Positions 1 to 58,533 of a stretch of 64,000 nt of DNA are shown one piece after another. The translations under genes were made by a program, and so were the position numbers. The stretch's first letter is position 1. Each line of letters opens with the position of its first letter. The notes below the pieces were generated by a model. The model made no database searches. It was not told where the DNA came from and saw nothing but the letters and a program-made list of their open reading frames with translations. Origin of the DNA: an uncultured Eubacteriales bacterium (GTDB lineage Bacteria > Bacillota > Clostridia > Christensenellales > Aristaeellaceae); contig CADBKQ010000003.1 of NCBI GenBank assembly GCA_902795275.1, positions 69,912-133,911 on the forward strand, read 5' to 3'.

Positions 1-791
1 GGGCTTTTCATGGCGCGCCCGTTCAGGAAGAAATGCTCGTGGCTGCGGTTGCCCCGGCCCGCGTCGCCCACGCCCACGTAGCCGGACAGCATGACCCCGT
101 TCATAGTACCCTCGATTTTGGTGAGCAGCTTTAAAGTGTCCGTGCCGTACACGCTCATGACCGCGCTTTCCAGCCGCCCGTCCCCCGCGCTGAAATACAC
201 CAGCTTGCCGTCCGCCATGAAGCGGAAGGAGACGGTGGGGTGACTGAGGATCAGCCGGGCCATCAGCTCGCTGACGGCGGCGGTTTCCGTGGCGGGCTTT
301 TTCAGGAACTTGCGGCGCACCGGCGCGTTGTAAAACAGCTCCTTCACCGTGAAGGTGGTGCCCTCGGGGCAGGCGGAGTCCTGAATGTCCAGGATGTCGC
401 CGCCCTCGTTGCGCACGGTCAGGCCCATGTCCTGGCCCCTGGCGCGGGTCTGGCAGGTGACTTTCGATACCGCCGCGATGGAGGCCAGCGCCTCGCCCCG
501 GAAGCCCAAAGACCGCACGCCGTATAAATCCTCGGCGGTGCGGATCTTGCTGGTGGCGTGGCGGGCGAAAGCCAGGCGGATGTCGCTGGGCTGGATGCCG
601 CTGCCGTTGTCCACCACCCGGAAGGAGGAAAGGCCACCTTCCTTGATGTCCACCGTGATGGCGGTCGCTCCCGCGTCCATGCTGTTTTCCACCAATTCCT
701 TGATCGCCGCCGCGGGCCGCTCCACGACCTCTCCCGCCGCGATCTGCCCGATCACTTCCGGGGGAAGCTGGCGGATGTGGTTTGTTTCCAT
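1..791 (-). CDS. mutL: DNA mismatch repair protein MutL, N-terminal ATPase part (gene continues past the window start)
   Basis: My translation of the minus strand from the ATG at 791 gives METNHIRQLPPEVIGQIAAGEVVERPAAAIKELVENSMDAGATA..., the canonical MutL GHKL N-terminus. An AGGAG RBS lies upstream and the gene sits just downstream of mutS. Confidence 0.9.
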   Translation of the reverse strand, partial: METNHIRQLPPEVIGQIAAGEVVERPAAAIKELVENSMDAGATAITVDIKEGGLSSFRVVDNGSGIQPSDIRLAFARHATSKIRTAEDLYGVRSLGFRGEALASIAAVSKVTCQTRARGQDMGLTVRNEGGDILDIQDSACPEGTTFTVKELFYNAPVRRKFLKKPATETAAVSELMARLILSHPTVSFRFMADGKLVYFSAGDGRLESAVMSVYGTDTLKLLTKIEGTMNGVMLSGYVGVGDAGRGNRSHEHFFLNGRAMKS

Positions 792-813
792 ATCTTGCTC
801 CTGTCGTATCAAA

Positions 814-922
814 GTGAGTGTGAGAGTGCAGAGTACAGATCATATAGTGTCGTCAAGTACCGGATTCCGTTTATTGTTCAGGTAAATGAATCTGAACTCT
901 GCACTCTGTACTCTGCACTCTC
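814..922. repeat. Heptad-arm palindromic element, copy A (AGAGTRC class)
   Basis: Perfect 18-bp inverted repeat: gagagtgcagagtacaga (822-839) pairs with tctgtactctgcactctc (905-922). The arms are 7-nt periodic and the loop is 65 nt and AT-rich. The right arm abuts the mutS stop codon (923-925). Confidence 0.9.
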
Positions 923-3520
923 TTATAATTTCATCGCCTTTTCTTTCAGCAAAAACAACTGATTCAGCGCATCAATGGGCGTCATGGCCATGACATCCAG
1001 CTTGCGGACTTCTTCGATGAATTCGGTTTTGGGGTATTCCATTAAATCGACCTGCTCGTTTTTCTTCTTGTGGCCCGCGCCCAGGATGTTCTGGCCGATC
1101 TTGTTGTTGGTCATGTCGTTGACTTCCAGGCGCGCCATGATCTCCTGCGCCCTTGCCACCACGGGCCGGGGGACGCCCGCTAAATGCGCTACGTAAATGC
1201 CGAAGCTCTTGTCCGCGCCGCCGGGGACGATCTTGCGCAGGAAGATGACCTCTTCCCCGTGCTCCTTGACGGACACACAGAAATTGGAAACGCCGTCCAA
1301 ATGTCCTTCCAGCTCGGACAGCTCGTGGTAGTGGGTGGCGAACAGGGTCTTGGCCCCGGACTTCTTTTTGTCGGCCAGGTATTCCACCGCCGCCCAGGCG
1401 ATGGACAGGCCGTCGAAGGTGGAGGTGCCGCGCCCGATTTCGTCCAGAATCACCAGGGACTTGCTGGTGGCGTTGCGCAGGATGTACGCCATTTCGCTCA
1501 TTTCCACCATGAAGGTGCTCTGCCCCGTGGCCAAATCGTCCGACGCGCCGACGCGGGTATACACCCCGTCCACCAGGGAAATGGAAGCGGACTTGGCGGG
1601 GACGAAGGAACCCATGTGCGCCATCAGCGTGATCAGCGCCACCTGGCGCATATAGGTGCTCTTGCCCGCCATGTTGGGGCCGGTGATGATCTGCACCCGC
1701 TTTTCATCGGCGTCCAGGTGGGTGTCGTTGGGGATGAAGCCCTGATCCGGCATGGCGGCTTCCACCACCGGATGCCGCCCGTCCTCGATGTCGATCACGC
1801 CGTCGTCGGTAATTTGAGGCCGCACATAGTGGTTGATCAGCGCCACCCGGGCCAGGCTCAGCAGCGCGTCCAGGGTCTTGTAGGCCAGGGCGGTGGACTG
1901 CAAGCGGGCCATGTTCCGCCCGATTTCCTCCCGGATGCCGTCGAACAGGCCGATTTCCAGCCGGGCGGCCTTGTCCTGGGCGCCGGTCACCTTGCGCTCG
2001 ATCTTTTGCAGCTCTTCGGTGGTGAAGCGCTCGGAATTGGCCAAAGTCTGCCGGGCGATATAGCGCAGGGGCACCTTGTCCCAATTGGACTTGGTGACTT
2101 CGATATAATAGCCGAACACCCGGTTATAGCTGATGCGCAGGTTCTTGATGCCGGTTTCTTCCCGCTCCTTGGCTTCCAGCTCGGCGATCCACGCCTTGCC
2201 GTCGGCGGCGGCTTCCCGGTATTCGTCCAGCTCCTGGCTGTACCCGGCGCGGATGAAATTGCCGTCGGACAGCAGCAGCGGCGCGTCGGGCGAAATGCCC
2301 CGGCGCAATAGGTCGGCCAGCTCGGGCAGCGGGTCCAGCAATTCTTTCAGGAAAGAAAGCGCATCGTCCTCCACGCCCGACAGCAGGTTCAGCACCTCCG
2401 GGGCCTTTTCCAGCGAGCGCAGCAGGCTCAGGCAGTCCCGGGCGTTCAGGGTGTGGTAGCTCACCTTGGAAAGCAGCCGCTCCATGTCGTAAACCTGGGA
2501 CAATTGATCCCGAAGGTTTTCCGACAGCACATGCTGCTTGTACAGCGCTTCCACGGCGGAGAGCCGGGCTTCGATTTTTTCTTTATTCACCAGCGGCTTT
2601 TCCACCCAGGAGCGCAGCAGCCGCCCGCCCATGGCGGTCACGGTCTGATCCAGGATGGACAGCAGCGACCCCTTCGCCGTCCGGCCCCGGATGGTTTCGG
2701 TCAATTCCAGGTTGCGGCGGGTGGAGGCGTCCAGGGGCATCATATCGTTCTTTTCCAGCACCCGGACGCGGGAAATATGCTGCAAGGCGTTTTTCTGGGT
2801 TTCGCTCAGATACCGCATCAGCGCGCCTGCGGCCTGGGCCGCCACGGAAAGGGAAGCGTCCAGGCCCAGGGCGGTGAGGGAATGCACCTGGAAATGGGAC
2901 AGCAGCGTTTCCTTGGCGTTCGCGTTCTGGTACGCGGCGGCGGCATAGCCCCGGCATTTCAGCTGCGTGCAGGGCTGCACAGCCTCCGGGCTGTTGGTGA
3001 TGATTTCGCCGGGGTTCAGGGCGTCCAGCGCGCTCTTGATGGCGGAAGGTGTATTCTCCACCTGCTGCACGTAAAACTCGCCGGTGCTCACGTCGCAGGC
3101 GGCGACGCCCGCCCGCCTGCCGTTGACGCACACAGAGCAGAGGAAGTTGTTCCGCTTTTCCCCGATGACGCTGGAATCCGTCAGCGTGCCGGCGGTAACG
3201 ATGCGGATAATGTCCCGCTCCACAAGCCCCTTGGCCAGCGCCGGGTCCTGCATCTGCTCGCCGATGGCCACCCGGTAGCCCCGCTCCACCAGCCGCGCCA
3301 CGTAGGCGTCCACCGCGTGGTAAGGAACGCCGCACATGGGCGCGCGCTCCTCCAGGCCGCAGTCCTTGCCGGTGAGGGTCAATTCCAGCTCCCGGCTGGC
3401 GGTGATGGCGTCGTCAAAGAACATCTCGTAAAAATCCCCGACCCGAAAAAAAAGCAGGGTGTCGGGGTTCTGTTCTTTCAGCTTCATATACTGCTGCATC
3501 ATCGGGGACAGCGTAGCCAT
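923..3520 (-). CDS. mutS: DNA mismatch repair protein MutS
   Basis: 865-aa ORF starting MATLSPMMQQYMKLKEQNPDTLLFFRVGDFYEMFFDDA, with Walker A GPNMAGKST and full MutS domain order. Confidence 0.97.
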   Translation of the reverse strand: MATLSPMMQQYMKLKEQNPDTLLFFRVGDFYEMFFDDAITASRELELTLTGKDCGLEERAPMCGVPYHAVDAYVARLVERGYRVAIGEQMQDPALAKGLVERDIIRIVTAGTLTDSSVIGEKRNNFLCSVCVNGRRAGVAACDVSTGEFYVQQVENTPSAIKSALDALNPGEIITNSPEAVQPCTQLKCRGYAAAAYQNANAKETLLSHFQVHSLTALGLDASLSVAAQAAGALMRYLSETQKNALQHISRVRVLEKNDMMPLDASTRRNLELTETIRGRTAKGSLLSILDQTVTAMGGRLLRSWVEKPLVNKEKIEARLSAVEALYKQHVLSENLRDQLSQVYDMERLLSKVSYHTLNARDCLSLLRSLEKAPEVLNLLSGVEDDALSFLKELLDPLPELADLLRRGISPDAPLLLSDGNFIRAGYSQELDEYREAAADGKAWIAELEAKEREETGIKNLRISYNRVFGYYIEVTKSNWDKVPLRYIARQTLANSERFTTEELQKIERKVTGAQDKAARLEIGLFDGIREEIGRNMARLQSTALAYKTLDALLSLARVALINHYVRPQITDDGVIDIEDGRHPVVEAAMPDQGFIPNDTHLDADEKRVQIITGPNMAGKSTYMRQVALITLMAHMGSFVPAKSASISLVDGVYTRVGASDDLATGQSTFMVEMSEMAYILRNATSKSLVILDEIGRGTSTFDGLSIAWAAVEYLADKKKSGAKTLFATHYHELSELEGHLDGVSNFCVSVKEHGEEVIFLRKIVPGGADKSFGIYVAHLAGVPRPVVARAQEIMARLEVNDMTNNKIGQNILGAGHKKKNEQVDLMEYPKTEFIEEVRKLDVMAMTPIDALNQLFLLKEKAMKL

Positions 3521-3581
3521 AACGCGCTTGCTCCTTTATGAATCGATTTGAGAAAAAAAGCAGGAAGGACGAGAGATCAGC

Positions 3582-3694
3582 GTACAGAGTGCAGAGTACA
3601 GATTTATATTGTGTACAAATGATGGCTTCTTTCACCGCAAACGCAAAAAAATCTGCGCTCTGACCTCTGTACTCTGTTCTCTATGCTCTGCACG
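3582..3694. repeat. Heptad-arm palindromic element, copy B (AGAGTRC class, degenerate)
   Basis: gtacagagtgcagagtacagat (3582-3603) pairs with atctgcgctctgacctctgtac (3651-3672) at 18/22 positions. The TCTGNNC heptads continue to 3694, directly abutting the stop codon of the ylbF-like gene (3695-3697). Loop is 47 nt. Confidence 0.8.
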
Positions 3695-4090
3695 TCAGCC
3701 GCACCCGGAGCACGCGGCGCAGTTGCCACTGCATCCGCCCTGGCTGCCGCCGGGATTGAGGGTGGCGGACAGTTCGGCGTTCACCTGGCCCATCATGTCG
3801 GAAAAGCCCTTCCGCGCCTGCTGCAGGGCCTGGTACATGGGCTGGGCTTTGATCTGCTGCTGCACCGTATCCAGGTCGCGGGTGAGGGTGCCGATGCGGT
3901 CAAAGTTGGGTTCTTTTTTCAGGGTCTCGTCCTCCACGTCCCGGTGGATGCTGTCGTACTGTTTCAAAAGCTCCTGCAATGTTTCGTCCTGTCCCGCGGC
4001 GTCCTCGGTGGCCCGCATGGTGATGTACTCCGGCGACTGGGCGATGATGCTTGCCAATTCCTTGGCTTTGTCGATCACGGCTTGGCTCAT
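3695..4090 (-). CDS. YlbF/YmcA-family (UPF0342) regulatory protein with a Cys-rich C-terminal tail
   Basis: 131-aa ORF MSQAVIDKAKELASIIAQSPEYITMRATEDA... with a YlbF-like helical pattern. The tail is GGCSGNCAACSGCG. It sits between miaB and mutS, as is common in Firmicutes. Confidence 0.7.
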   Translation of the reverse strand: MSQAVIDKAKELASIIAQSPEYITMRATEDAAGQDETLQELLKQYDSIHRDVEDETLKKEPNFDRIGTLTRDLDTVQQQIKAQPMYQALQQARKGFSDMMGQVNAELSATLNPGGSQGGCSGNCAACSGCG

Positions 4091-4114
4091 GGTGGTTGCT
4101 CCTTTTCTTCAATA

Positions 4115-4231
4115 AGTTCTAAGTTCTTAGTTACAAGTTCTAAGCTGTTTTGTTTCCAAGTTCATTGCGCGGCAATTGACGTATTTCATCATCCGTCTTG
4201 GCTTAGAACTTAGAACTTGGAACTTAGAACT
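4115..4231. repeat. Heptad-arm palindromic element, copy C (AAGTTCT class)
   Basis: The left arm agttctaagttcttagttacaagttctaagc (4115-4145) matches the reverse complement of gcttagaacttagaacttggaacttagaact (4201-4231) at 27/31 positions. Loop is 55 nt. Confidence 0.85.
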
Positions 4232-4248
4232 AAACACTTGCTTTAGGC

Positions 4249-5652
4249 TCAGATTTCACCCTTTAATGTTGTCTTGCTCGCCGCGGTGATCCTGACCGGC
4301 ACGATCTTACCGATCATGTCGGGATTGCCCGCGAAGTTGACGCTGATGTTCCGGGATGTTTTGCCGGTGAACTGGCTTTCGTCCCGCTTGCTCTGGCCCG
4401 TGACCAGCACGCTTTCGGTTCTTCCGATCATTTCCGCGAAGCGCTTCTGGGTCATTTCCTCCTGCAAGGCGATGAGGCGTTCGATGCGCTCGGTGGCCAG
4501 GGAGGGGTCGATGCGGCCCGGCATTTCGGCGGCGCGGGTGCCGACGCGGGGAGAGTAAATGAAGGTGAAGGCGCTGTCGTAGCCCACCTGCCGCACCAGA
4601 TCCATGGTGTCCTCAAAGTCCCGGTCTGTTTCGCCGGGGAAGGCCACGATGATGTCCGTGGTCAGGCCCACGTCCGGGGCGGCCTTGCGGATTTTTTCGA
4701 CCTTCTCCAGATAGCTTTCCCGGGTGTACTTCCGGTTCATGGCCTGCAAAATCTGGTTGCTGCCGCTTTGCACGGGCAGGTGCAAGTGGCGGCACAGGCT
4801 GGGGTTATTCGCCATTTCCTCAATCAGCTCGTCGGACAAATCCTTGGGATGGCTGGTCATGAAGCGGACTCTCGGGATGCCCGTTTCCGTGACGCGGCGC
4901 AGCAATTGCGGGAAAGTGACGCCGCCGGGCACGTCGTTGCCGTAGGAATTCACATTCTGCCCCAGCAGCATGATTTCCTGGACGCCCTGCTGCTGCAATT
5001 GTTCCACTTCGCGCACAATATCATCCGCCGCCCGGCTGCGCTCCCGGCCCCGCACGTAGGGCACGATGCAGTAGGAACAGAAGTTGTTGCAGCCGTACAT
5101 GATGGTGACGTAGGACTGGAAGGGACTTTCCCTGCGGATGGGCAGGCCCTCGGCGATGGTGCTCTGCTCCTCCGGCACCGCCACCACCCGGCGGCGGGTT
5201 TGAGCGGCGCGATACAAAAGCTCCGGCAGCTGGTGGATGTTCCCGGGGCCGAAGGCCACGTCCACGAAGGGATACTGCCGCAGCAGCTTGTCCGCCATGC
5301 CGGGCTCCTGCACCATGCAGCCGCACACGCCGATGAGCAGGTTAGGCCGTTCCTTCTTGATTTCTTTCAGCCAGGTCACATTACCAAGGGCCTTGCGTTC
5401 GGCGTTGTCCCGGATGCAGCAGGTGTTATGCAGCACGAAGTCCGCTTCTTCCTTCGCCGGGGCGGGCGTCATGCCCATGCCCTCCAGCATCCCCGCCAGC
5501 TTCTCCGAATCGTGGGCGTTCATCTGGCAGCCATAAGTGACGATGTAATAGGTCTGCGGATGGTCGGGCAGGGCTTTGAATTCCTCCGCGAAGCGCCGCT
5601 GGGAAAGCAGTTCTTCTTCTGATACGTGAATGATTTGGTCACGTTTGTTCAT
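4249..5652 (-). CDS. miaB: tRNA (N6-isopentenyl-A37) 2-methylthiotransferase MiaB (radical SAM MTTase)
   Basis: 467-aa ORF with the UPF0004 N-domain (YIVTYGCQMN), the radical SAM motif CNNFCSYCIVP and a C-terminal TRAM region. Confidence 0.9.
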   Translation of the reverse strand: MNKRDQIIHVSEEELLSQRRFAEEFKALPDHPQTYYIVTYGCQMNAHDSEKLAGMLEGMGMTPAPAKEEADFVLHNTCCIRDNAERKALGNVTWLKEIKKERPNLLIGVCGCMVQEPGMADKLLRQYPFVDVAFGPGNIHQLPELLYRAAQTRRRVVAVPEEQSTIAEGLPIRRESPFQSYVTIMYGCNNFCSYCIVPYVRGRERSRAADDIVREVEQLQQQGVQEIMLLGQNVNSYGNDVPGGVTFPQLLRRVTETGIPRVRFMTSHPKDLSDELIEEMANNPSLCRHLHLPVQSGSNQILQAMNRKYTRESYLEKVEKIRKAAPDVGLTTDIIVAFPGETDRDFEDTMDLVRQVGYDSAFTFIYSPRVGTRAAEMPGRIDPSLATERIERLIALQEEMTQKRFAEMIGRTESVLVTGQSKRDESQFTGKTSRNISVNFAGNPDMIGKIVPVRITAASKTTLKGEI

Positions 5653-5662
5653 TCATGATACC

Positions 5663-6742
5663 TCATTGTACTTTTTTTCTCGTCATTTCCACCAGCCCCA
5701 GGGACGTGAAGCCATGCACTACAGCCTTGACGGGATCGTCTTTCAGGGCCGCTTCCAGGGCTTCCCGGACGGCGGCGCGGCTTTCCTCGGTCTGCATGTC
5801 CACAAAGTCGATGATGACGATGCCCCCGATATTGCGAAGCCGGAGCAGCCTGGCGATTTCCTTTGCCGCTTCCAGGTTGAGCTTTAAGAAGGTGTTCTCG
5901 GCGCCGGTTTTGTTCCCGGTGAATTTGCCGCTGTTCACGTCGATGACGGTCATGGCCTCAGTGGGGTCGATGATGAGATACCCGCCGCAGTCCAGCCAGA
6001 CCTTGCGGGCCAGGGATTTTTCCAGCTTCGCGGGGACGCTGTACACATCAAACGGCGCGGGGCAGGCGCGAACGGAAACGCTCACCCCGGCGATTTCCTC
6101 CGGCCGGTCGGTGAGGATCTCTTCGATTTCCCCGTGCTCATCCCGAAGAAGCCGAACGAGCGCGTCCTCCCGGCCTTTCAGCAGGCAGGGTTCGGATACC
6201 TGAGAACGCTTTTCCAGCACGTCTTCCCAGGATGCTTGCAGTGCTTCCACGTCGGAGGCAATGGCTTCTTCCTCCGCGTCCGCGCTTTCCGTGCGCATCA
6301 CCAGCCCCATGTCCGCCGGGGCAACGCGGGAAGCTAAATCGGAAAGCCTGTTTCGCGTTGCTTCGTCCTGGATTTTCTTGGACACGGCGAAGCGCAGGGT
6401 GAAGGGCGTCAGCAAGGCGAACCGCCCGGCTAAAGCAATATCCGCAGTCAGGTACGCCGCCTTTTCCCCGATGGGCGGCTTCTTCACCTGGACGATCATC
6501 AGGTCTCCGGAACGCGGTTTTTCCCTGCATTCGCTGAACGGCAGGAAGCCCATGGCGTCCCCGCCCAAGCGAACAAACGCCGCTTCCATGCCCTTGACAA
6601 TGCGATCCACCTTGCCCAGATAAATCTGTTCGGCGGCAATGCCCCCGCCCGCGTCCCGGACAAAAGCCAGCAGCCGCTTCCCTTCCAGCAGGGCAATTTC
6701 ACGTTGGCCGTCGGTGTGTCGAAGTAAAACTGTTTTGCTCAC
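5663..6742 (-). CDS. rng: Rne/Rng-family ribonuclease (RNase G-like), short form ending before the Zn-link
   Basis: 359-aa ORF with an S1 domain (IYLGKVDRIVKGMEAAFVRLG) and catalytic motifs DVNSG and IIDFVDM. It ends at GLVEMTRKKVQ. Confidence 0.85.
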   Translation of the reverse strand: MSKTVLLRHTDGQREIALLEGKRLLAFVRDAGGGIAAEQIYLGKVDRIVKGMEAAFVRLGGDAMGFLPFSECREKPRSGDLMIVQVKKPPIGEKAAYLTADIALAGRFALLTPFTLRFAVSKKIQDEATRNRLSDLASRVAPADMGLVMRTESADAEEEAIASDVEALQASWEDVLEKRSQVSEPCLLKGREDALVRLLRDEHGEIEEILTDRPEEIAGVSVSVRACPAPFDVYSVPAKLEKSLARKVWLDCGGYLIIDPTEAMTVIDVNSGKFTGNKTGAENTFLKLNLEAAKEIARLLRLRNIGGIVIIDFVDMQTEESRAAVREALEAALKDDPVKAVVHGFTSLGLVEMTRKKVQ

Positions 6743-7401
6743 ATTTCCTCCAGCGGATAAAACACCCCGTCCTTTTCTCCGAACATCTGGGTGCGGGTCA
6801 CGATCATGTGGGGACGCTCCAGCTTGGCGAAGTCAAAGAGGGTGGACAGCAGCAGTTCCGGCTTGCAGGTGGCCTTTTCGCACAGGGCCAGGGTCATGCG
6901 CAGGGCGTCGCCATTCAGCGATAGGTCATAGATCATGGGCCGGATGTCGCAGGGCTTCATGCCGGTTTTGGTCTTGCGGATGGCGGGGATTTCGCTTTGG
7001 GCCAGGAACGCGGGGATGGCCTCGGCCAAGCCCTCCGGCACCTCGTCCAGCTTCGCTTCGTACATGGCGGCGGCAAGCTGGGCCATGGGCGCGGGATGGC
7101 GGTCGTCCACCGCCCGGGCGCTGATGCACGGCAATTCCGGCGGCAGGGCGGGCCGAAGCTTTCCCAGAAACGCTTCCCCCGTCATTTCCCCCTCGATGGG
7201 TACCTCCATAATTTCCCGCTTGCCCGGCATCCCCACCGACAGCGGCGCGGCGAAGGTCAACAGGATATGGGGGTTAAAGCCCTGGGAATATTTCAGCGGC
7301 AGCCCGCTCCGCCGCAGCGCCCGCTGCATGGCTCGCATCAAATCCAAATGCCCGATGTGGCGCAGGCGCGACGTTTTTTCAAAGACGACGATCAGCTTCA
7401 T
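6739..7401 (-). CDS. TIGR03936-family radical SAM-associated protein (DUF2344)
   Basis: 220-aa ORF MKLIVVFEKTSRLRHIGHLDLMRAMQRALRRSGLPLKYSQGFNPH, a typical DUF2344 N-terminus. It has a 4-nt overlap with the downstream RNase G gene. Confidence 0.8.
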   Translation of the reverse strand: MKLIVVFEKTSRLRHIGHLDLMRAMQRALRRSGLPLKYSQGFNPHILLTFAAPLSVGMPGKREIMEVPIEGEMTGEAFLGKLRPALPPELPCISARAVDDRHPAPMAQLAAAMYEAKLDEVPEGLAEAIPAFLAQSEIPAIRKTKTGMKPCDIRPMIYDLSLNGDALRMTLALCEKATCKPELLLSTLFDFAKLERPHMIVTRTQMFGEKDGVFYPLEEM

Positions 7402-7430
7402 GGGAAGATATATCCTTTCGGGAATCAGTC

Positions 7431-7555
7431 GAGTGAGGAGTTAGGAGTGAGGAGTGAGGAGTGAGGAGTTAAATCTTGCTCTACCATTACCGTTCGGTCT
7501 TGCGTTTTTGCATCCATCTAACCAACTCCTAACTCCTCACTCCTAACTCCTCACT
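7431..7555. repeat. Heptad-arm palindromic element, copy D (GGAGTKA class)
   Basis: The left arm gagtgaggagttaggagtgaggagtgaggagtgaggagtt (7431-7470) is the inverted repeat of aactcctaactcctcactcctaactcctcact (7524-7555). Loop is about 53 nt. It ends 7 nt from the stop of the upstream radical SAM gene. Confidence 0.9.
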
Positions 7556-7561
7556 AAAAAT

Positions 7562-9463
7562 TTACTCCGCCAGCGGCGCACTGGTCTTTGCCTTGCCTTT
7601 CAGCGGCGGGTCTTTCACCCAGTCGCATACGCCCCAGGTGTGCAGGCCGCAGCCGTTGCAGCCGTGGCGGCAGTCGGGGGTGGTCTGGGTCTGCTTGGCC
7701 TTTTCGTTCTCGCGTTTCAGATAGGCCATGCTCACGCCCGCGTCGATGAATTCCCAGGGCAAAAGCTCGTCGTAGGGCCTCTCCCGGTGGGCGTAGAACG
7801 CGGGGTCCAGGCCGCAGTCTTCAAAGGCGCCCATCCACTGGTCGAACTTGAAATGCTCGTTCCAGCTGTCTAAGCGGCAGCCCCGCTTCCAGGCGGCGTA
7901 AATCACCTCGCCGATGCGCCGGTCGCCCCGGGAAATGCAGGCCTCCAGCATGGACAGCTCGCTTTCGTGCCAGTTGAAATGCACGTTTTTCAGCTTCAGA
8001 TACTGCCGCAGGGCCGCCTGCTTTTCGTGGACGGTGTCGATGGTGTCCTGGGCAGCCCATTGGAAAGGCGTGAAAGGCTTGGGCACGAACACGGACGCGC
8101 TGGCCGTCACCCGCACGCCGCTCTTGGCCCGCTGTTCCTTGGGCACGCGGTAGAAGGCGTCCACCACCTTCTTGGCCAAATCGCCGATGCCCCGCAAATC
8201 CTCGTCAGTTTCGGTGGGCAGGCCCATCATGAAGTACAGCTTCACGCTGCTCCACCCGCACTCAAAGGCGTCGGTGACGGAGCGGATCAAGTCTTCCTCC
8301 GTCACGCCCTTGTTGATGACATCGCGCAGCCGCTGTGTCCCCGCTTCGGGCGCCAGGGTGAGGCCGGACTTTTTCACCTGCTGAGTTTCTTCCAGGGATT
8401 GCTTCACGATGTTGTCGATGCGCATGCTGGGCAGGGACACGCTCACCCGCTTGTCCCGGTAGCGGTCCATCAATGCCTGAATCAATTGCGGCAGGCAGGT
8501 GTAATCCCCGCTGGACAGGGAGGACAGGCTCATTTCCTCATAGCCCGTGGACTGCTGCAATTTGTCCGCCAGCTCCAAAAGCCGTTCCATGCTGCGCTCC
8601 CGCACGGGCCGGTACAGCATTCCCGCCTGGCAGAAGCGGCAGCCCCGGGTGCAGCCCCGCATGATTTCCAGCACCATGCGGTCATGGACGATTTCGGTGT
8701 AGGGGACGGGGATGGACTCGGGATAAATCGCGTTGGACAAGTCCTTGACCACCCGCTTTTTCACCTTCGCGGGGGCCGCCGGGTCGTTGGGCTTGAAGGA
8801 TTTCAGGGTGCCGTCCCCGTTGTAGCTGACGTCGTAGAAAGCCGGAACATAAACCCCTTCCAGCTTCGCCAGGTTCCGCAGAATGTCGATGCGTTTCAGC
8901 CCTGCCACCCTGCCGTCCCGGATCACGTCGATCAGCTCGTGCATCACGTCCTCGCCGTCGCCGATCATAAAGGCGTCGATGAAGGGGGCCAGGGGTTCGG
9001 GGTTAAAGGCGCAGGGCCCGCCCGCCACCACGATGGGGTCGGCCTCGGCCCTCTCCTCCCTGCGAATCGGTACCCGGCCCAAATCCATCATTTCCAGGAT
9101 GTTGGTATAGCTCATTTCGTATTGCAGGGTGAAGCCGATGATGTCAAATTCATTCAGCGCCGCCCGGCTTTCCAGAGAGAACAGCGGCACGCCGGCCTCC
9201 CGCATCTTGTCCGCCATGTCGGCGTCGGGCATGAACAGCCGCTCGCACAGGGCGTCGGGGCGTTCGTTGATGAGATAATACAGAATCTTCATGCCCAGGT
9301 GGCTCATGCCGATTTCGTAGGTGTCCGCGAAGCAGAAGCCGAAGGTGCACTTCACGCTGTTCCAGTCCTTGCGCACCGCGTTCATTTCGCCGCCGGTATA
9401 GCGGGCGGGCCGCTGCACCGTTTCCAGCAGTTCTTCCAGCTTCCTGTTTTCCAGGTCGTTCAA
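7562..9463 (-). CDS. TIGR03960-family B12-binding-domain radical SAM protein
   Basis: The body matches this family (ARYTGGEMNAV..., radical SAM motif RGCTRGCRFCQAG). The 720-aa track ORF has an implausible N-terminus. I place the start at the TTG at 9463, preceded by a GGGGGA RBS, so the start is uncertain. Confidence 0.8.
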   Translation of the reverse strand: MNDLENRKLEELLETVQRPARYTGGEMNAVRKDWNSVKCTFGFCFADTYEIGMSHLGMKILYYLINERPDALCERLFMPDADMADKMREAGVPLFSLESRAALNEFDIIGFTLQYEMSYTNILEMMDLGRVPIRREERAEADPIVVAGGPCAFNPEPLAPFIDAFMIGDGEDVMHELIDVIRDGRVAGLKRIDILRNLAKLEGVYVPAFYDVSYNGDGTLKSFKPNDPAAPAKVKKRVVKDLSNAIYPESIPVPYTEIVHDRMVLEIMRGCTRGCRFCQAGMLYRPVRERSMERLLELADKLQQSTGYEEMSLSSLSSGDYTCLPQLIQALMDRYRDKRVSVSLPSMRIDNIVKQSLEETQQVKKSGLTLAPEAGTQRLRDVINKGVTEEDLIRSVTDAFECGWSSVKLYFMMGLPTETDEDLRGIGDLAKKVVDAFYRVPKEQRAKSGVRVTASASVFVPKPFTPFQWAAQDTIDTVHEKQAALRQYLKLKNVHFNWHESELSMLEACISRGDRRIGEVIYAAWKRGCRLDSWNEHFKFDQWMGAFEDCGLDPAFYAHRERPYDELLPWEFIDAGVSMAYLKRENEKAKQTQTTPDCRHGCNGCGLHTWGVCDWVKDPPLKGKAKTSAPLAE

Positions 9464-18504: not shown

Positions 18505-18618
18505 GGAGGGATTAGGGAATAGGGATTAGGGATTAGTTATTTTGTTTTGCTATTTCGTTAGTTTCCAATCGTGTTGCACACGATCTTTACAAATCCCTAT
18601 TCCCTAATCCCTAATCCC
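18505..18618. repeat. Heptad-arm palindromic element, copy E (TAGGGAT class)
   Basis: The left arm ggagggattagggaatagggattagggattag (18505-18536) is the inverted repeat of aatccctattccctaatccctaatccc (18592-18618). Loop is about 55 nt. Confidence 0.9.
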
Positions 18619-18662
18619 TTTTTAACTTAAAGGTTCCTCTCAGCAACAAATCATTCCCCGTC

Positions 18663-26052: not shown

Positions 26053-27768
26053 ATGAAGAAACTGATGATCGGCAACGAAGCGGTGGCCCGCGGGGCCTAC
26101 GAGGCCGGGGTGCGCGTGGTGTGCAGCTATCCCGGCACGCCCAGCACGGAGATCACCGAATTCTGCGCCAAGTATCCCGAAATGAACTGCCAGTGGGCTC
26201 CCAACGAAAAGGTGGCCGTGGAAACCAGCTTCGGCGCGTGCATGGTGGGCGCAAGGGCGCTTTCCTGTATGAAGCACGTGGGCGTGAACGTGGCGGCGGA
26301 TCCGCTGTTCACCGCGGCCTACACCGGCGTCAACGGCGGCCTGGTGATCGCGGCGGCGGACGACCCCTTCATGCACTCCAGCCAGAACGAGCAGGACACC
26401 CGCATGATCGCCCGCAGCAGCCACATCCCCACCCTGGAGCCGGCGGACAGCCAGGAATGCCTGGACTATACCAAGCTGGCCTATGAGATTTCCGAGCAGT
26501 ACGACACCCCGGTGTTCCTGCGCCTCACCACCCGTTTGGCCCATTCCCGGTCGCCGGTGGAAACGGGCGAGCGGGCCGACGTGCCGCTGAAAGATTACGA
26601 AAAGAACCCCGGCAAATACGTAATGATGCCCGGCATGGCCCGGAAGCGCCATCTGGTGGTGGAAAAACGGGAAAAGAAGCTGACGAAGGACGCCGACAGC
26701 CTGCCCATTAACCGCGTGGAAATGCGGGATACGAAGCTGGGCGTGGTCTGCGGCGGCGTGGTGTACCAGTACGTGCGGGAAGCGCTGCCCGACGCCAGCG
26801 TGCTGAAACTCGGCATGACCTATCCCCTGCCCGAAAACATGATCCGGGACTTCGCCGCGAAGGTGGAAAAGCTGGTTGTCATCGAGGAGCTTGAACCCGT
26901 GTTCGAGCGGGACATCCGCAACCTGGGCATCGAGGTTTCCGGCAAGGACAAGACCGGCCTGCAGGGCGAGCTGTCCGCCGCGAAGATTCGCCAATTGTTC
27001 GGCGACGGCGCGGAAGCGCCCCAGGAAGCCGCGCTGCCTGGACGGCCCCCGGTGCTGTGTCCCGGCTGTCCCCACCGGGCCACCTTCTTCGCTATGAAGA
27101 AGCTGGGCCTGACCGTGTTCGGCGACATCGGCTGCTACACCCTCTGCGCCCTGCCGCCCATCAACCTGATGGATTCCACCCTCTGCATGGGCGCGTCCGT
27201 CGGCATGGCCCACGGTGCTGAAAAGGCCCGGGGCAAGGAATTCTCTAAGAAAGCTGTGGCGGTGCTGGGCGATTCCACCTTCATCCACAGCGGCATCACG
27301 CCCCTGGTGGACGCGGTGTACGGCGGCGCTTCCACCACCACCGTGATCCTGGACAACCGCATCACCGGCATGACCGGCCACCAGCAGAACGCCGCTTCCG
27401 GCAAGAACATTTTAGGCGACCCCGCGCCGCAGCTGAACCTGGAAGCTCTGTGCGAAGCCATCGGGGCCACGGTGCGCGTGTGCGACCCGCATAATTTAAA
27501 GGAATTTACGCAAATATTAAAAGAAGAAACCGAAGCCGACCACGTGTCCGTGGTCATCGCCCGGCGTCCCTGCGCCCTGCTGGACAAGCGCAGGAAGGAG
27601 CCTTCCCACATTGAGAACTGCCGCAACTGCGGGGCTTGCATGAAGATCGGCTGCCCGGCGCTCATCAAGACCGACAAAGGCGTGGTCATCGACCATACCC
27701 TGTGCGTGGGCTGCGGCCTGTGCAAGCAGGTGTGTCCCTTCGGCGCCATTCAAGGAGGCGAGGAATGA
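26053..27768 (+). CDS. iorA: Indolepyruvate:ferredoxin oxidoreductase subunit alpha
   Basis: 571-aa ORF with a TPP-enzyme N-terminus (GNEAVARGAYEAGVRVVCSYPGTPSTEI) and a C-terminal 2x[4Fe-4S] motif (CRNCGACMKIGCP...CVGCGLCKQVCP). Confidence 0.9.
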   Translation: MKKLMIGNEAVARGAYEAGVRVVCSYPGTPSTEITEFCAKYPEMNCQWAPNEKVAVETSFGACMVGARALSCMKHVGVNVAADPLFTAAYTGVNGGLVIAAADDPFMHSSQNEQDTRMIARSSHIPTLEPADSQECLDYTKLAYEISEQYDTPVFLRLTTRLAHSRSPVETGERADVPLKDYEKNPGKYVMMPGMARKRHLVVEKREKKLTKDADSLPINRVEMRDTKLGVVCGGVVYQYVREALPDASVLKLGMTYPLPENMIRDFAAKVEKLVVIEELEPVFERDIRNLGIEVSGKDKTGLQGELSAAKIRQLFGDGAEAPQEAALPGRPPVLCPGCPHRATFFAMKKLGLTVFGDIGCYTLCALPPINLMDSTLCMGASVGMAHGAEKARGKEFSKKAVAVLGDSTFIHSGITPLVDAVYGGASTTTVILDNRITGMTGHQQNAASGKNILGDPAPQLNLEALCEAIGATVRVCDPHNLKEFTQILKEETEADHVSVVIARRPCALLDKRRKEPSHIENCRNCGACMKIGCPALIKTDKGVVIDHTLCVGCGLCKQVCPFGAIQGGEE

Positions 27769-29606: not shown

Positions 29607-29720
29607 GAGAGTTCAGAGCACAGAGTTCAGAGTACAGATCATATCGCAATACCGCTTTGAATTCTTTGAATGAGCAGACCATATCAATCTGGACTCTGCA
29701 CTCTGTACTCTGTACTCTGA
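29607..29720. repeat. Heptad-arm palindromic element, copy G (AGAGTRC class)
   Basis: The left arm gagagttcagagcacagagttcagagtacagatc (29607-29640) is the inverted repeat of tctggactctgcactctgtactctgtactctga (29688-29720). Loop is 47 nt. It begins 16 nt after the alr stop. Confidence 0.9.
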
Positions 29721-31639: not shown

Positions 31640-32266
31640 ATGTCTACCAATCGCCTGATGACCTTTGAACTGCTGGACCGTATGGAGCAGCTCCTTTCGG
31701 AAGCCTGGGCCGTTCCCCTGACCAAGAAATTCATGCTGGACAAGGAAGAATTCTCCAGCCTGATGCGCCGCCTGGAAGAAAGCATTCCCGTGGACGTGCA
31801 GAACGCCAAGACCATCATCGACCAGGAAGAAAACATCATCAACGAAAGCAACCGCATCGCCGAGGAAACCACCCGCACCGCCAGCGCCGAAGCGCAGGCG
31901 ACGGTGGACAACGCCAAGCAGGAAGCCAACGCCATGGTGAACGACGCCCAGGCCCGCGCCGCCGAAACCCTGCGCACCTCCACCGACCAGGCCAACGCCA
32001 TGGTCGCCGACGCTCAGACCCGCGCCAACGCGCTGGTGGCTGACGCCCAGGCCCGCGCCGCCCAGATGGTGGCCGACAGCGAAATTGTGGCCCGCGCCCA
32101 GGCCCAGGCCCAGGAAATGCTGGAAAGCGCCCACCGGGACTGCGAAGCCTACACCGCCCGGGTGCACGACTCCATCAACCAGCTCATGGAGCAGCTGGAC
32201 ATCAGCGTGAACCAGCAGGCCGAGGCCGTCCGCGCCCTGCGGCAGCAGTACGCCAACCCGCAGTGA
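31640..32266 (+). CDS. Ala/Gln-rich coiled-coil protein, function unknown
   Basis: 208-aa ORF with internal repeats (ANAMVNDAQARAA / ANAMVADAQTRAN / ALVADAQARAA). GGAGG RBS at 31625-31629. Confidence 0.6.
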   Translation: MSTNRLMTFELLDRMEQLLSEAWAVPLTKKFMLDKEEFSSLMRRLEESIPVDVQNAKTIIDQEENIINESNRIAEETTRTASAEAQATVDNAKQEANAMVNDAQARAAETLRTSTDQANAMVADAQTRANALVADAQARAAQMVADSEIVARAQAQAQEMLESAHRDCEAYTARVHDSINQLMEQLDISVNQQAEAVRALRQQYANPQ

Positions 32267-32275
32267 GACAAGACA

Positions 32276-32603
32276 ATAGGGATTAGGGATTAGGGATTAG
32301 GGATTTGTTATAGAGTACAGAGTTATATGGTCGATCAATTCTGGATTCCGCAGCATGTTCACTCTATCATCTGATACTATTCTCAAATCAAACAAGCTAA
32401 TCAGAATCATTCAGGTAACGTTGTCATTCTTGTCATCCTGAGCGCGCTCGGCCGCGAAGGACCTCCCTCGTTTATGACCCCAGAAGCAGGGGAGGTCCTT
32501 CGACTCCGCTTCGCTCCGCTCAGGATGACAGCGAAGCGCGGATGACAGAACTGTTCCCTCGTATTTGCTGTATGAACTCTGCACTCTGTACTCTGTACTC
32601 TTC
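32276..32603. repeat. Composite repeat locus F: orphan TAGGGAT array plus an AGAGTRC-class element with an expanded loop
   Basis: aatagggattagggattagggattagggattt (32276-32306) has no inverted partner. It is followed by the short arm agagtacagagtt (32312-32324). The matching far arm is gaactctgcactctgtactctgtactcttc (32574-32603). Confidence 0.85.
32432..32529. repeat. Nested palindrome (GTCATCCTGAGCG...CGCTCAGGATGAC) inside the loop of locus F
   Basis: Outer 13-bp inverted repeat at 32432-32444 and 32517-32529. Inner 12-bp inverted repeat gaaggacctccc (32456-32467) pairs with gggaggtccttc (32490-32501). Confidence 0.85.
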
Positions 32604-45275: not shown

Positions 45276-45349
45276 GGGATTATAGCTCAGTTGGTTAGAG
45301 CGCCACGTTGACATCGTGGAGGTCATAGGTTCGAGCCCTACTAATCCCA
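45276..45349 (+). tRNA. tRNA-Val (anticodon GAC), CCA not encoded
   Basis: Manual cloverleaf: acceptor gggatta/taatccc, D-arm gctc-agttggtta-gagc, anticodon stem ccacg/cgtgg with loop ttGACat, T-arm atagg-ttcgagc-cctac. Confidence 0.93.
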
Positions 45350-45354
45350 CTTTC

Positions 45355-49755: not shown

Positions 49756-49865
49756 GGAGGGATTAGGGATTAGGGAATAGGGATTAGGGAAGATAGTGTA
49801 CAATACGATTGGAAGTAAACGAAAGAGTAAAACAAAATGACTAATCCCTATTCCCTAATCCCTCC
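49756..49865. repeat. Heptad-arm palindromic element, copy H (TAGGGAT class)
   Basis: The left arm ggagggattagggattagggaatagggattaggga (49756-49790) is the inverted repeat of taatccctattccctaatccctcc (49842-49865). Loop is 51 nt and matches the reverse complement of the copy E loop. Confidence 0.9.
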
Positions 49866-49905
49866 TTCGTTACATAAATCGCCCCTCCAAGCCGTCCTCG
49901 CCCAA

Positions 49906-57237: not shown

Positions 57238-57888
57238 TTACGCCAGAACCAATTCCACAATTTCATCCGGCTCAATGACCAGGCGCCTCGCTCCGTTGGC
57301 GATCAGTTCTTCCCGCGGGCGGTAGCCCCAGAGCACGCCGATGGTTTCCATCCCGGCGGCGTTGCCGCACTTCATATCCGTGCTGGTATCGCCCACGTAC
57401 CAGCAGCCGCCGGGCTCCATGCCCAGCTGCGCCGCAATCAGCAAGGCCGCAGCTGGGTCGGGCTTGAGGGGCACGCCCTCTGTGCGCCCGCGGATGACGG
57501 AAAAACGCACGTCCGGGAAATAATGCCCCAGCACCCGTTCGGCGTCGGCCTGGTCCTTGTTGGTGAGCACGCACACGTCCACGCCGTTTTCGCACAGGGT
57601 TTTCAGCATTTCCGGCACGCCCCGGAACACCCTGCTGTTCACCTGGTTGTTCACGGAATAATCAGCCTTGTACGCTTCCAGCACCTGCTGATAAAGCTCC
57701 GTATGTTCTCCGACGCAGCGCTCGGTCAGCTTCAATACGCCGTTTCCGACCTTGTATTTATACGCGCTTTCCTCAAACGTCGGCAGGCCGAACTTTTTCA
57801 GCGAACGGTTCATGGCCGCGGCAATGTCCGGCAAGGAATGAATCAGCGTACCGTCCAGATCAAAGATGACGCATCTTTTCATGTTCAT
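57238..57888 (-). CDS. HAD-superfamily hydrolase (phosphoglycolate phosphatase-like)
   Basis: MNMKRCVIFDLDGTLIHS with a GGAAGGAG RBS and a later VGDTSTDMKCGNAAG motif. The 430-aa track ORF is an extension. Confidence 0.85.
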   Translation of the reverse strand: MNMKRCVIFDLDGTLIHSLPDIAAAMNRSLKKFGLPTFEESAYKYKVGNGVLKLTERCVGEHTELYQQVLEAYKADYSVNNQVNSRVFRGVPEMLKTLCENGVDVCVLTNKDQADAERVLGHYFPDVRFSVIRGRTEGVPLKPDPAAALLIAAQLGMEPGGCWYVGDTSTDMKCGNAAGMETIGVLWGYRPREELIANGARRLVIEPDEIVELVLA

Positions 57889-57969
57889 TGCTCCTTCCTC
57901 TTCCCCTGAATTGTAGCACAGGAATGCTTTTTGCGCAAGGCGGGCATGATAGGCAGGGGAGGAATGAAC

Positions 57970-58533
57970 ATGAAAAGACTGAAAAAAACCGGTTCCCTGC
58001 ACGGCTTTCTGCTCACCGTCTGCGCCGTGGCGCTGGCGGTGGGCCTGATGACGGAAACCGCGAAAGCGCCGGAGCTGGAAGCGCCGACACTGAGCGCCAC
58101 ACAGCCGCCCGCTGTCGGCGCGGCGGAGCAGGGCGCGAAAGTCGCCGCGGCCTGCGAAATCATCCAGACCATGGCCTTTACCCGCTGCGGCCACAGCGTG
58201 ACCCGCCGCGTCCAAGCCCCGGAAGCCCTGGCCGGGGCGGACTTTGCGGCGGTGCAGGATTACTACAGCCTGTGGCAGATCGAAAGCTTCGCCCCGGAGC
58301 GCATCGATATGCGCCGGGAAATCCCGCTTTTCTGCCCCATCCATACGGTGGCGGGCGTGAACGAAGCGGGAGACGTGGTGCTGCTGCGCAACATGTACGG
58401 CGACGGCATGGCCGTGGTGAAGGATCTGGGGCGCTCCCTGGACGGCTTTGCCCCGGAAGCCCGCGAAGCGCTTCTGCTGGGCGTGGGCTTTGACACCGAA
58501 CAGGACGCGGAAGCCTGGCTGCGGGAGCATTGA
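57970..58533 (+). CDS. Secreted protein, possibly BofC C-terminal-domain-like
   Basis: MKRLKKTGSLHGFLLTVCAVALAVGL signal/anchor. The C-terminal part (GVNEAGDVVLLRNMYGDGMAVVKDLG...LLLGVGFDTEQDAEAWLREH) resembles the BofC_C pattern as I remember it. The functional call is tentative. Confidence 0.5.
   Translation: MKRLKKTGSLHGFLLTVCAVALAVGLMTETAKAPELEAPTLSATQPPAVGAAEQGAKVAAACEIIQTMAFTRCGHSVTRRVQAPEALAGADFAAVQDYYSLWQIESFAPERIDMRREIPLFCPIHTVAGVNEAGDVVLLRNMYGDGMAVVKDLGRSLDGFAPEAREALLLGVGFDTEQDAEAWLREH

Follow-up and report, generated by a model that had tools for sequence, protein, structure and literature searches.

Here we characterize a set of intergenic elements with inverted heptamer arms in a 64,000-nucleotide stretch of DNA from an uncultured Eubacteriales bacterium of the Christensenellales (Aristaeellaceae; GenBank assembly GCA_902795275.1, contig CADBKQ010000003.1, positions 69,912 to 133,911 of the forward strand), hereafter the window. 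Eight loci of the window share one architecture, in which tandem copies of a heptamer are followed by an AT-rich loop and then by tandem copies of the reverse complement of that heptamer. We lean, with considerable reserve, towards the explanation that these loci are members, lacking an open reading frame (ORF), of a dispersed, fast-turnover family of foldback elements that resemble the intervening sequences (IVSs) of 23S rRNA and are tolerated in the spacers between the stop codon of one gene and the ribosome-binding site (RBS) of the next. The elements occupy such spacers in co-directional operons and leave the native RBS intact, and the orthologous spacers of close relatives are empty or contain a different element. 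Whole elements have been copied to unrelated sites in either orientation. Full-size versions that bear a PF05635 gene have the same architecture, share an insertion site beside mutS and, in one case, have the same arm unit (GGAGTKA).

An earlier note on this DNA, made from the letters alone, had picked out eight palindromic intervals, and all eight proved real, lying where the note had placed them or within a few bases. Its view that they form one architectural family, distinct from intrinsic terminators and CRISPR arrays, was also borne out: terminators are ruled out by stems of 18–40 bp, loops of 47–65 nt, a missing T-run and the intra-operon position, with no U-tract 3' of the stem at any element in the window, and CRISPR arrays by the 7-nt unit and the absence of spacers. 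Sequence inspection of all eight intervals gave 3–6 heptamers per run and an element size of ~115 bp, the loop lengths above applying to the simple elements. Tandem Repeats Finder (TRF) reported 16 period-7 rows in the 64 kb, of which 15 fall within the eight loci, with 3.3–5.6 copies each; the sixteenth (27558–27580) is weak, gapped and located in a coding region. A self-match scan of the window (threshold, at least 19 of 21 matches) returned nine regions for a period of 7 and none for periods of 3–6 or 8–12, and period 7 is the sole short period enriched. An inverted-repeat search recovered arms of 18–31 nt, 80–100% complementary and 49–65 nt apart; complementarity was strongest in elements D (31 nt, 97%), H (23 nt, 100%), E (21 nt, 100%) and A (18 nt, 100%) and weaker in C (31 nt, 87%) and B (25 nt, 80%). 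Variant heptamers are mirrored between the two arms in A, D, E and H and are unmirrored in G and B, where the stem has a mismatch about every 7 bp. The seven simple elements have predicted RNA folds of -41 to -69 kcal/mol (z = -4.0 to -9.6), which none of 200 shuffles matched.

Elements A to D fill the sizeable spacers of a radical-SAM to mutL operon, as the earlier note had stated. The genes of this cluster lie co-directionally on the minus strand in the order B12/radical-SAM, D, DUF2344, RNase G, MiaB-like, C, YlbF-like, B, MutS, A, MutL. Element A (AGAGTRC type; 814–922, arms 814–839 and 891–922, loop 840–890; -41.8 kcal/mol, z -5.9) separates two minus-strand genes, with the mutS stop at 923 and the mutL start at 792. 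Element B (3578–3694, arms 3578–3602 and 3665–3694; -47.5 kcal/mol, z -4.1), also of AGAGTRC type with a degenerate right arm, is flanked by the ylbF-like stop (3695) on one side and the mutS start (3520) on the other. Element C (AAGTTCT type; 4113–4233, arms 4113–4145 and 4201–4233, loop 4146–4200; -43.3 kcal/mol, z -6.4) occupies the spacer from the MiaB-like stop (4249) to the ylbF-like start (4090), and element D (GGAGTKA type; 7431–7555, arms 7431–7470 and 7524–7555, loop 7471–7523; -68.5 kcal/mol, z -8.9) that from the B12/radical-SAM stop (7562) to the DUF2344 start (7401).

The other elements are found among housekeeping and cell envelope genes (e.g. alr, rsmD, coaD, rnpA-yidC-jag, SHMT, argininosuccinate lyase and glycosyltransferases). 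Two are of TAGGGAT type: E (18505–18620, arms 18505–18536 and 18591–18620; -52.9 kcal/mol, z -9.6), between the stop of a gene without known function (18663) and the start of an M23 peptidase gene (18474), and H (49756–49866, arms 49756–49790 and 49841–49866; -43.7 kcal/mol, z -6.5), between the stop of a GT4 glycosyltransferase gene (49906) and a DUF4422 start (49737). Element G (29607–29720, arms 29607–29638 and 29688–29720; -40.7 kcal/mol, z -4.0), on the plus strand between the alr stop (29591) and the next start (29737), is of AGAGTNC type, every unit being mismatched at the variable position. A 107-kb scaffold from a rumen metagenome (L001) encodes the MutS protein of the window, and a ninth copy, of TAGGGAA type, lies on it just beyond the window (L001:19398–19520). 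All eight elements of the window stand between co-directional genes. The upstream stop is 0 nt from the arm in A, 0–3 nt in B, 15 nt in C, 6 nt in D, 42 nt in E, 15 nt in G, 9 nt in F and 39 nt in H, and the distal arm is 16–57 nt from the next start codon, except in F.

Seven of the eight loci are thus simple inverted pairs and the eighth, F, is a pair with a solo array beside it. F, which the earlier note had listed under two arm types, is composite. F proper (32311–32603), between a stop at 32266 and the rpmH/rnpA promoter region, is an AGAGTRC-armed element with a short left arm (~32311–32323), a right arm at 32573–32603 and a loop of ~250 nt, the 5' part of which is homologous to the A loop and which also holds a nested, unrelated GC-rich palindrome (~32430–32545). 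The TAGGGAT units belong to a separate plus-strand array of four copies that abuts F (32276–32305; TRF 100% matches, score 58) and has no inverted partner; recombination or nested insertion between two elements may have left it behind. The nested GC-rich palindrome (GTCATCCTGAGCG...GGGAGGTCC...CGCTCAGGATGAC) recurs among the relatives introduced below at L005:1494–1759, L006:15196–15463 and L002:3343–3848, in one case inside a further element with heptamer arms. This palindrome has the look of a separate small repeat family, unrelated to the heptamer elements, for which hairpin loops serve as places of insertion. Directly upstream of F, the gene at 31640–32266, for which there was no Pfam match, contains an in-frame 33-nt tandem repeat of 2.1–2.4 copies (31991–32077).

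We compared the mutS neighbourhoods of five metagenome relatives (L002–L006) and 80 GTDB species representatives (L007–L086) using a hairpin detector that accepted only arms which were complementary over 16 nt or more and in which 7 was the dominant internal period. The closest MutS relatives are metagenome-assembled genomes (MAGs) from ruminant gut studies, named as 'Clostridia / Clostridiales / Christensenellaceae bacterium'. The detector found 25 distinct elements, only in the scaffold of the window, in nine close relatives, with a MutS identity of 84% or more, and in one distant Christensenellales MAG (L081, MutS 57%), and found none in ~70 other MutS loci (~1.3 Mb), which include some relatives at 84–89% MutS identity. 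This distribution indicates that the elements are real, lineage-restricted and patchy. Local assembly artefacts, which the earlier note had named as a danger, do not explain them, the same kind of element being present in independent assemblies of related rumen Christensenellales MAGs from other studies.

Within this clade there are at least 12 unit types (AGAGTRC, AAGTTCT, GGAGTKA, TAGGGAT, TAGGCAR, GGAGGTA, GAGAGTT, GGAGTGT, GGGAACA, GGAATTA, GGGGAAT and GAATTCG), among which no di- or trinucleotide is universal; the AGT previously thought to recur at a shared phase of the heptamer is therefore not general. Other proposed regularities were also dropped. A common AG or NAG-N4 periodicity, of the kind bound by HutP or TRAP, is absent from GGGGAAT and GAATTCG; stop codons in all three frames as the cause of the units hold for TAGGGAT, TAAGTTC and GGAGTKA and fail for AGAGTRC and GGAGGTC. 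As to polarity, the G- or purine-rich arm is always 5' on both strands in the clade of the window, AAGTTCT being near neutral.

Alignment of the operon by BLASTN (94% nucleotide identity with L010 and 82–89% with L008, L007 and L005) showed collinear coding sequences, with alignments stopping exactly at the elements. The mutS-mutL junction, which is filled in the window alone, by A, consists in L003, L005, L007 and L008 of TAA, 13–16 nt and ATG. At the B site, L006 has an element of the same type as the window (AGAGTRC) and L010 has one of GGAGTKA type. The C site holds AAGTTCT in the window and L006, AGAGTRC in L008 and L010, TAGGCAR in L005, and no element in L007. The D site holds GGAGTKA in the window and AGAGTRC in L008 and L010, with 13–22 nt and no element in L007 and L003. 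Loops of the copies that differ in type at the C and D sites (L010, L008 and L005) are unrelated to those of the window. Conversely, the DUF2344-rng and rng-miaB junctions contain elements in L006 and L010 and none in the window. A native RBS is kept downstream of every element, and the element-free orthologous spacers measure 13–57 nt in L003, L004, L005 and L007.

Whole elements, arms together with loop, recur as copies at unrelated loci. The reverse complement of E is 90% identical to H across the arms, the asymmetric loop and a few flanking bases, and the two are 31 kb apart and have opposite orientations relative to equally oriented host genes. A second family, that of A, has five copies, with homologues of A at three different junctions, namely the left part of F, the D sites of L008 and L010, and the DUF2344-rng junction of L010; the D-site copies of L008 and L010 are mutually opposite in orientation. 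In L012, GGAGGTA arms accompany the 3' part of the A loop, such that one arm unit is found with various loops and one loop with various arms. These comparisons show that arms and loop travel together, that loops can flip and that arms and loops reassort, with loop flipping being an expected outcome of recombination between inverted arms. Outside the E/H and A families the loops are dissimilar in an all-against-all comparison, and a shared loop motif noticed by eye (ATATnGTGT.../...AAAACAAAAnA) was discarded on the basis of that comparison.

These patterns bear on the possibility that the elements are cis-regulatory RNA hairpins selected by the host, acting through differential mRNA stability, processing by RNase III or RNase Y, or translational coupling, rather than selfish DNA. 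The strict placement between stop codon and RBS would fit such a role, as would the persistence of stable stems through sequence turnover and the similar spacer length (~145–180 nt) at the same junction in the window scaffold and L010 despite unrelated sequences. The nif intergenic regions of Anabaena, reportedly described as 'variable but structured' by Jackman & Mulligan (1995), could be a parallel. However, these junctions lack an element in relatives with proteins that are 89–94% identical, the occupied junctions differ by genome, orientation is random, and the loops accept nested insertions and, as described below, a cargo gene. We therefore regard host-selected regulation as unlikely.

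A link between the ORF-less elements and a protein-coding family emerged from the mutS locus of L074 (MutS 84% identical), where a GGAGTGT-armed element starts 1–2 nt past the mutS stop, in the spacer that A occupies in the window. Its loop is a 125-aa ORF matching PF05635, '23S rRNA intervening sequence protein' (E = 1e-28). Among solved structures its closest relative is PDB 2RLD, an entry with five chains, and the Avd-like family is the one designated PF05635 (PMC10053308). Searches by tblastn with this ORF found genes in L087, L091 and L196 (GC 31–50%), each within inverted heptamer arrays. At two orthologous sites between ABC genes (P0145 and P0136), one gene lies between GGAGTKA arms and the other between AGAGTGR arms. 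The GGAGTKA arms at the ABC site (L207–L216) equal those of element D in unit and phase. In different samples that encode an identical PF05635 protein, the 5' arm at this site has ~7 (L207), ~3 (L210) or ~5 (L216) units and the 3' arm is constant. Arm unit number thus changes between samples, consistent with slippage, and the two arms change length independently because the 5' arm varies, in two-unit steps, beside a constant 3' arm. PF05635 genes at a gyrB-gyrA site and a dtd-upstream site (L238 and L239) are likewise armed. The arms of one PF05635-bearing element are predicted to pair across the ORF (-154.7 kcal/mol, z -6.6).

The association was quantified by scoring a gene as armed when period-7 arrays lay within 260 nt on both sides and had consensus units that were reverse complements of one another; beyond the first four, the homologue samples were not chosen for heptamers. 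Among plasmid-borne PF05635 genes 13 of 14 were armed (Cyanobacteriota, Bacteroidota, Spirochaetota, Chloroflexota and Bacillota), with agreement from a second detector, as were all eight genes in metagenome or genome contexts and 9 of 18 on viral contigs. By comparison, only four of 2496 mechanical ORFs of similar size from the MutS loci passed, of which one is the L074 gene and three are ORFs between adjacent L010 elements. The flanking units include the classical STRR1 heptamer CCCCAAT (Planktothrix) of the cyanobacterial short tandemly repeated repetitive (STRR) sequences, GGAGGTC (Nostoc) and a TAACTGA-like unit (Chondrinema). Most close PF05635 homologues are on contigs of 0.5–3 kb, as expected if the repeats break assemblies. 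A parallel exists in the 23S rRNA IVS of Coxiella, in which a 28-bp terminal stem is cut by RNase III and tandem GACAGAT heptamers, two or three depending on the strain, stand ahead of the S23p ORF (PMC4990558). That paper was the only one to connect PF05635, TIGR02436 or S23p with heptamer repeats in a literature search outside the reach of which lay most subscription journals; the bracketing of PF05635 genes by heptamers was thus not found described in the searchable literature, which is not proof of novelty.

Several armed PF05635 genes (L232, Anabaena cylindrica plasmid pANACY.01; L234; L224; L236; L237) are located at cas2-cas1, beside cas1, at hsdS-hsdR or at DUF1156-Swt1-HEPN loci. Reported CRISPR or defence 'associations' of PF05635 (e.g. 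in a figure legend of PMC10910872) may be a consequence of element insertion into operon spacers.

Our explanation for the eight loci as IVS-like foldback elements supposes that each element folds within the polycistronic mRNA into a double-stranded stem of 18–40 bp, which would hold the stop codon near the next RBS in space; an insertion that folds on itself in this way would persist because these two signals stay adjacent. The stem would be a substrate for RNase III, as are the stems of 23S rRNA IVSs, so that the element might be cut or removed; such cutting by RNase III is probable by analogy with these IVSs. Insertion would then be largely harmless to the host operon because the stem folds on itself and is cut. 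Arms would be remodelled by replication slippage together with template switching or recombination within the element, the latter also flipping the loop. The elements would persist as selfish or neutral DNA and not as host regulators, and repeats of this type are probably selfish.

A number of observations weigh against this explanation. The comparison of filled with empty spacers suggested by the earlier note confirmed presence/absence polymorphism, and yielded neither a target-site duplication nor a conserved target motif; an ACAGAT microhomology at the A site was too short to count. The element-free C site of L007 keeps one arm-like unit (GGAACT), and because some empty sites retain such a unit, growth in situ from a seed, or deletion, is inseparable from insertion. 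No transposase, REP-associated tyrosine transposase (RAYT; REP, repetitive extragenic palindrome), reverse transcriptase or, by tblastn, PF05635 gene is present in the 64-kb window. Half of the PF05635 genes on viral contigs are without arms (9 of 18 armed). Local alignments of the ORF-less loops with six full PF05635 elements and the L238 leader and trailer were no better than those of shuffles. The dissimilar loops therefore give no support to descent of the ORF-less from the ORF-bearing elements, and derivation of the loops from PF05635 cassettes by deletion was set aside. PF05635 genes might instead be cargo that landed in pre-existing hairpin loops. Finally, polarity is reversed in L233 (a Planktothrix agardhii plasmid) and L234 (Pseudanabaena), in which a C-rich CCCCAAT-type arm is 5' and a G-rich arm 3', in contrast to all Christensenellales elements and to the always-convergent pairs of Xanthomonas; the period of L234 is a 35-nt composite.

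Purely local evolution, in which arrays grow by slippage from a seed in the spacer and inverted pairs form by quasi-palindrome template switching with no movement between sites, draws on some of the same observations. Unit number is polymorphic (L207, L210 and L216), seed-like units are present both in the GGAACT of L007 and at the end of the radical-SAM gene, whose GGAGTAA or GGAGTGA adjoins GGAGTKA arms, and heptamer simple sequence repeats are over-represented in bacteria, an excess for which polymerase slippage has been held responsible (Mrazek 2007, as cited in PMC4692102). This alternative appears improbable since homologous asymmetric loops occur at unrelated loci (E and H; the A family at three junctions), arm units and loops occur in differing combinations (L012), and slippage does not account for arrays that closely flank PF05635 genes in five phyla.

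We consider it very improbable that these are conventional non-autonomous transposable elements mobilized by an enzyme encoded elsewhere in the genome, whether as transposable elements of the miniature inverted-repeat kind (MITEs) dependent on an insertion sequence or as REPIN-like doublets dependent on a RAYT (Y1/HUH). The loci resemble such elements in their length of ~110–125 bp, their terminal inverted repeats, their dispersal between genes and their polymorphic presence. The window loci nevertheless do not qualify as MITEs, with no target-site duplication between filled and empty sites, arm sequences that differ among copies and no transposase in the window, and they have neither a conserved REP-like core nor a RAYT within the 64 kb. 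A single sequence-specific transposase is, moreover, incompatible with terminal repeats that vary in length and differ wholly between copies, across the at least 12 unit types. An action on replication, nucleoid or transcription as double-stranded arrays that bind proteins or as non-B DNA (cruciforms or, in the case of GGG units, G-quadruplexes) is scarcely credible because, although four TAGGGAT copies fit the G3N4 quadruplex pattern and GGGAATC repeats form G-quadruplexes in vitro (Rehm 2015, PMC4692102), AGAGTRC, AAGTTCT and GGAGTKA units cannot do so and there is no common sequence for one protein to recognise.

A broader proposal, which we put forward tentatively as a possibility rather than an expectation, is that the heptamer hairpins are the non-autonomous form of a widespread and hitherto undescribed element composed of inverted heptamer arms and a gene for a PF05635 protein (Avd-like, a pentameric four-helix bundle). 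Such an element would encompass the eight loci of the window along with the STRRs and the Xanthomonas GGGAATC pairs, the ORF-bearing 23S rRNA IVSs would be copies that landed in rRNA, and the protein would act on the arms to copy or maintain the element. If this were true, the PF05635 protein might, for example, bind repeat RNA or DNA or bring in a polymerase or reverse transcriptase in the manner of Avd in diversity-generating retroelements, and the 7-nt periodicity would gain a mechanistic cause.

Searches of the window for known structures gave few other features. At gathering score, Rfam matched only a tRNA-Val and provided no family for the elements; this tRNA-Val (GAC; 45276–45350) is the sole Rfam or ARAGORN match in the window. 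A permissive Rfam scan of 600–7800 gave only sub-threshold matches resembling miRNA precursors, that is, generic long hairpins. Integron attC sites were ruled out, the flanking genes being syntenic core genes that are also present in element-free relatives. An inverted repeat of 21 nt with 95% identity (57874–57894 and 57958–57978) is not heptamer-periodic; at this repeat, a divergently oriented pair, a HAD-family hydrolase gene (minus) and a gene without known function (plus), share an RBS and a ATGAACATGAAAAGA start.

Tandem heptanucleotide repeats of bacteria, long a puzzle as to origin, function and the preference for seven, have been known since 1990, are statistically over-represented and are used in strain typing. 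The window extends this class to gut and rumen Bacillota and offers a clean natural experiment, in that the same core operon is empty, filled, or filled by a different element in MAGs that are 6–18% apart. The bracketing of PF05635 genes in five phyla ties heptamer repeats to 23S rRNA IVSs and the Avd family, a connection that could make the STRR puzzle experimentally tractable if it holds genome-wide. On a practical level, the repeats break short-read assemblies, yield spurious repetitive ORFs and can produce false 'associations' of PF05635 with defence and CRISPR operons.

Hairpin-forming intergenic repeats of ~100 bp in operon spacers are familiar in the form of REPs and their bacterial interspersed mosaic elements (BIMEs), REPIN-RAYT systems and MITEs, and the foldback (FB) elements of Drosophila have long inverted arms of short tandem repeats, a variable arm length and optional cargo in the loop. 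The window elements differ from all of these in their strict 7-nt period and in that no conserved terminal sequence, target-site duplication or associated transposase was found.

The closest described relatives are heptamer repeats of the STRR and GGGAATC types. The earlier note knew of no family with heptad-periodic inverted arms, an opinion that is overturned by the inverted pairs of Xanthomonas (PMC4692102), the cyanobacterial STRRs and the TAACTGA repeats (PMC4679880), all of which are of the same class. Its proviso that the loci might match a named family thus holds in part, through the STRR/GGGAATC class. The kind of element is already described, and what is new here is the host lineage and the diversity of units per genome. 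In public metagenomes, a search with three AGAGTNC copies found at least 120 stretches from very diverse habitats, with period-7 hairpins at no fewer than 32 loci among the matches listed.

In Xanthomonas campestris and X. axonopodis, Rehm et al. (2015, PMC4692102) reported ~185 GGGAATC-type arrays per genome, with 70–75 convergent inverted pairs capable of forming stem-loops. The arrays are 89–93% intergenic, mostly between co-oriented ORFs and on average 28 nt past the upstream ORF, have 2 to ~26 units with a mode near four, and differ in length and sequence between the two species; paired arrays converge in every case and have the G-rich strand 5' on both strands (PMC4692102). The window elements resemble this class in having heptamer arms, convergent stem-loop pairs and positions near the upstream ORF in spacers between co-oriented ORFs, and in varying in length and sequence between close relatives. 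Xanthomonas, of the Gammaproteobacteria, has one dominant unit, whereas the Bacillota considered here have four or more unit types within 64 kb and 12 or more across the clade. The Xanthomonas study also focused on G-quadruplexes, which most units of the window cannot form, and reported no loop homology, orientation flips or link to PF05635.

The STRR heptamers of cyanobacteria (Calothrix; Mazel et al. 1990, as cited in PMC4692102) are similar to the window elements in that a genome contains several units, found in operon spacers and diverging fast between close strains. Unlike the window elements, they are mostly described as direct arrays and as targets for fingerprinting, they belong to another phylum, and the polarity of their arms can be opposite (L233). 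The TAACTGA repeats of Beggiatoaceae, cyanobacteria and Bacteroidetes (MacGregor 2015, PMC4679880) are also intergenic tandem heptamers, of 2–6 units, with a patchy phylogenetic distribution; in contrast to the window elements, they are almost always direct (with one inverted set) and lie a few nucleotides upstream of starts rather than after stops.

The 23S rRNA IVSs of Coxiella and Leptospira are located in helix 25 or 45 and their excision by RNase III is harmless to the host RNA, whereas the window elements lie in mRNA spacers, with no rRNA gene in the window, and by tblastn lack the PF05635 ORF that the relatives L074 and L207–L223 carry. Like these IVSs, the window elements have long terminal inverted repeats that form a stem around a loop, and they reach the stem length of ~20–30 bp expected of IVS-type elements; the ORF family of the IVSs is the one found inside heptamer-armed hairpins.

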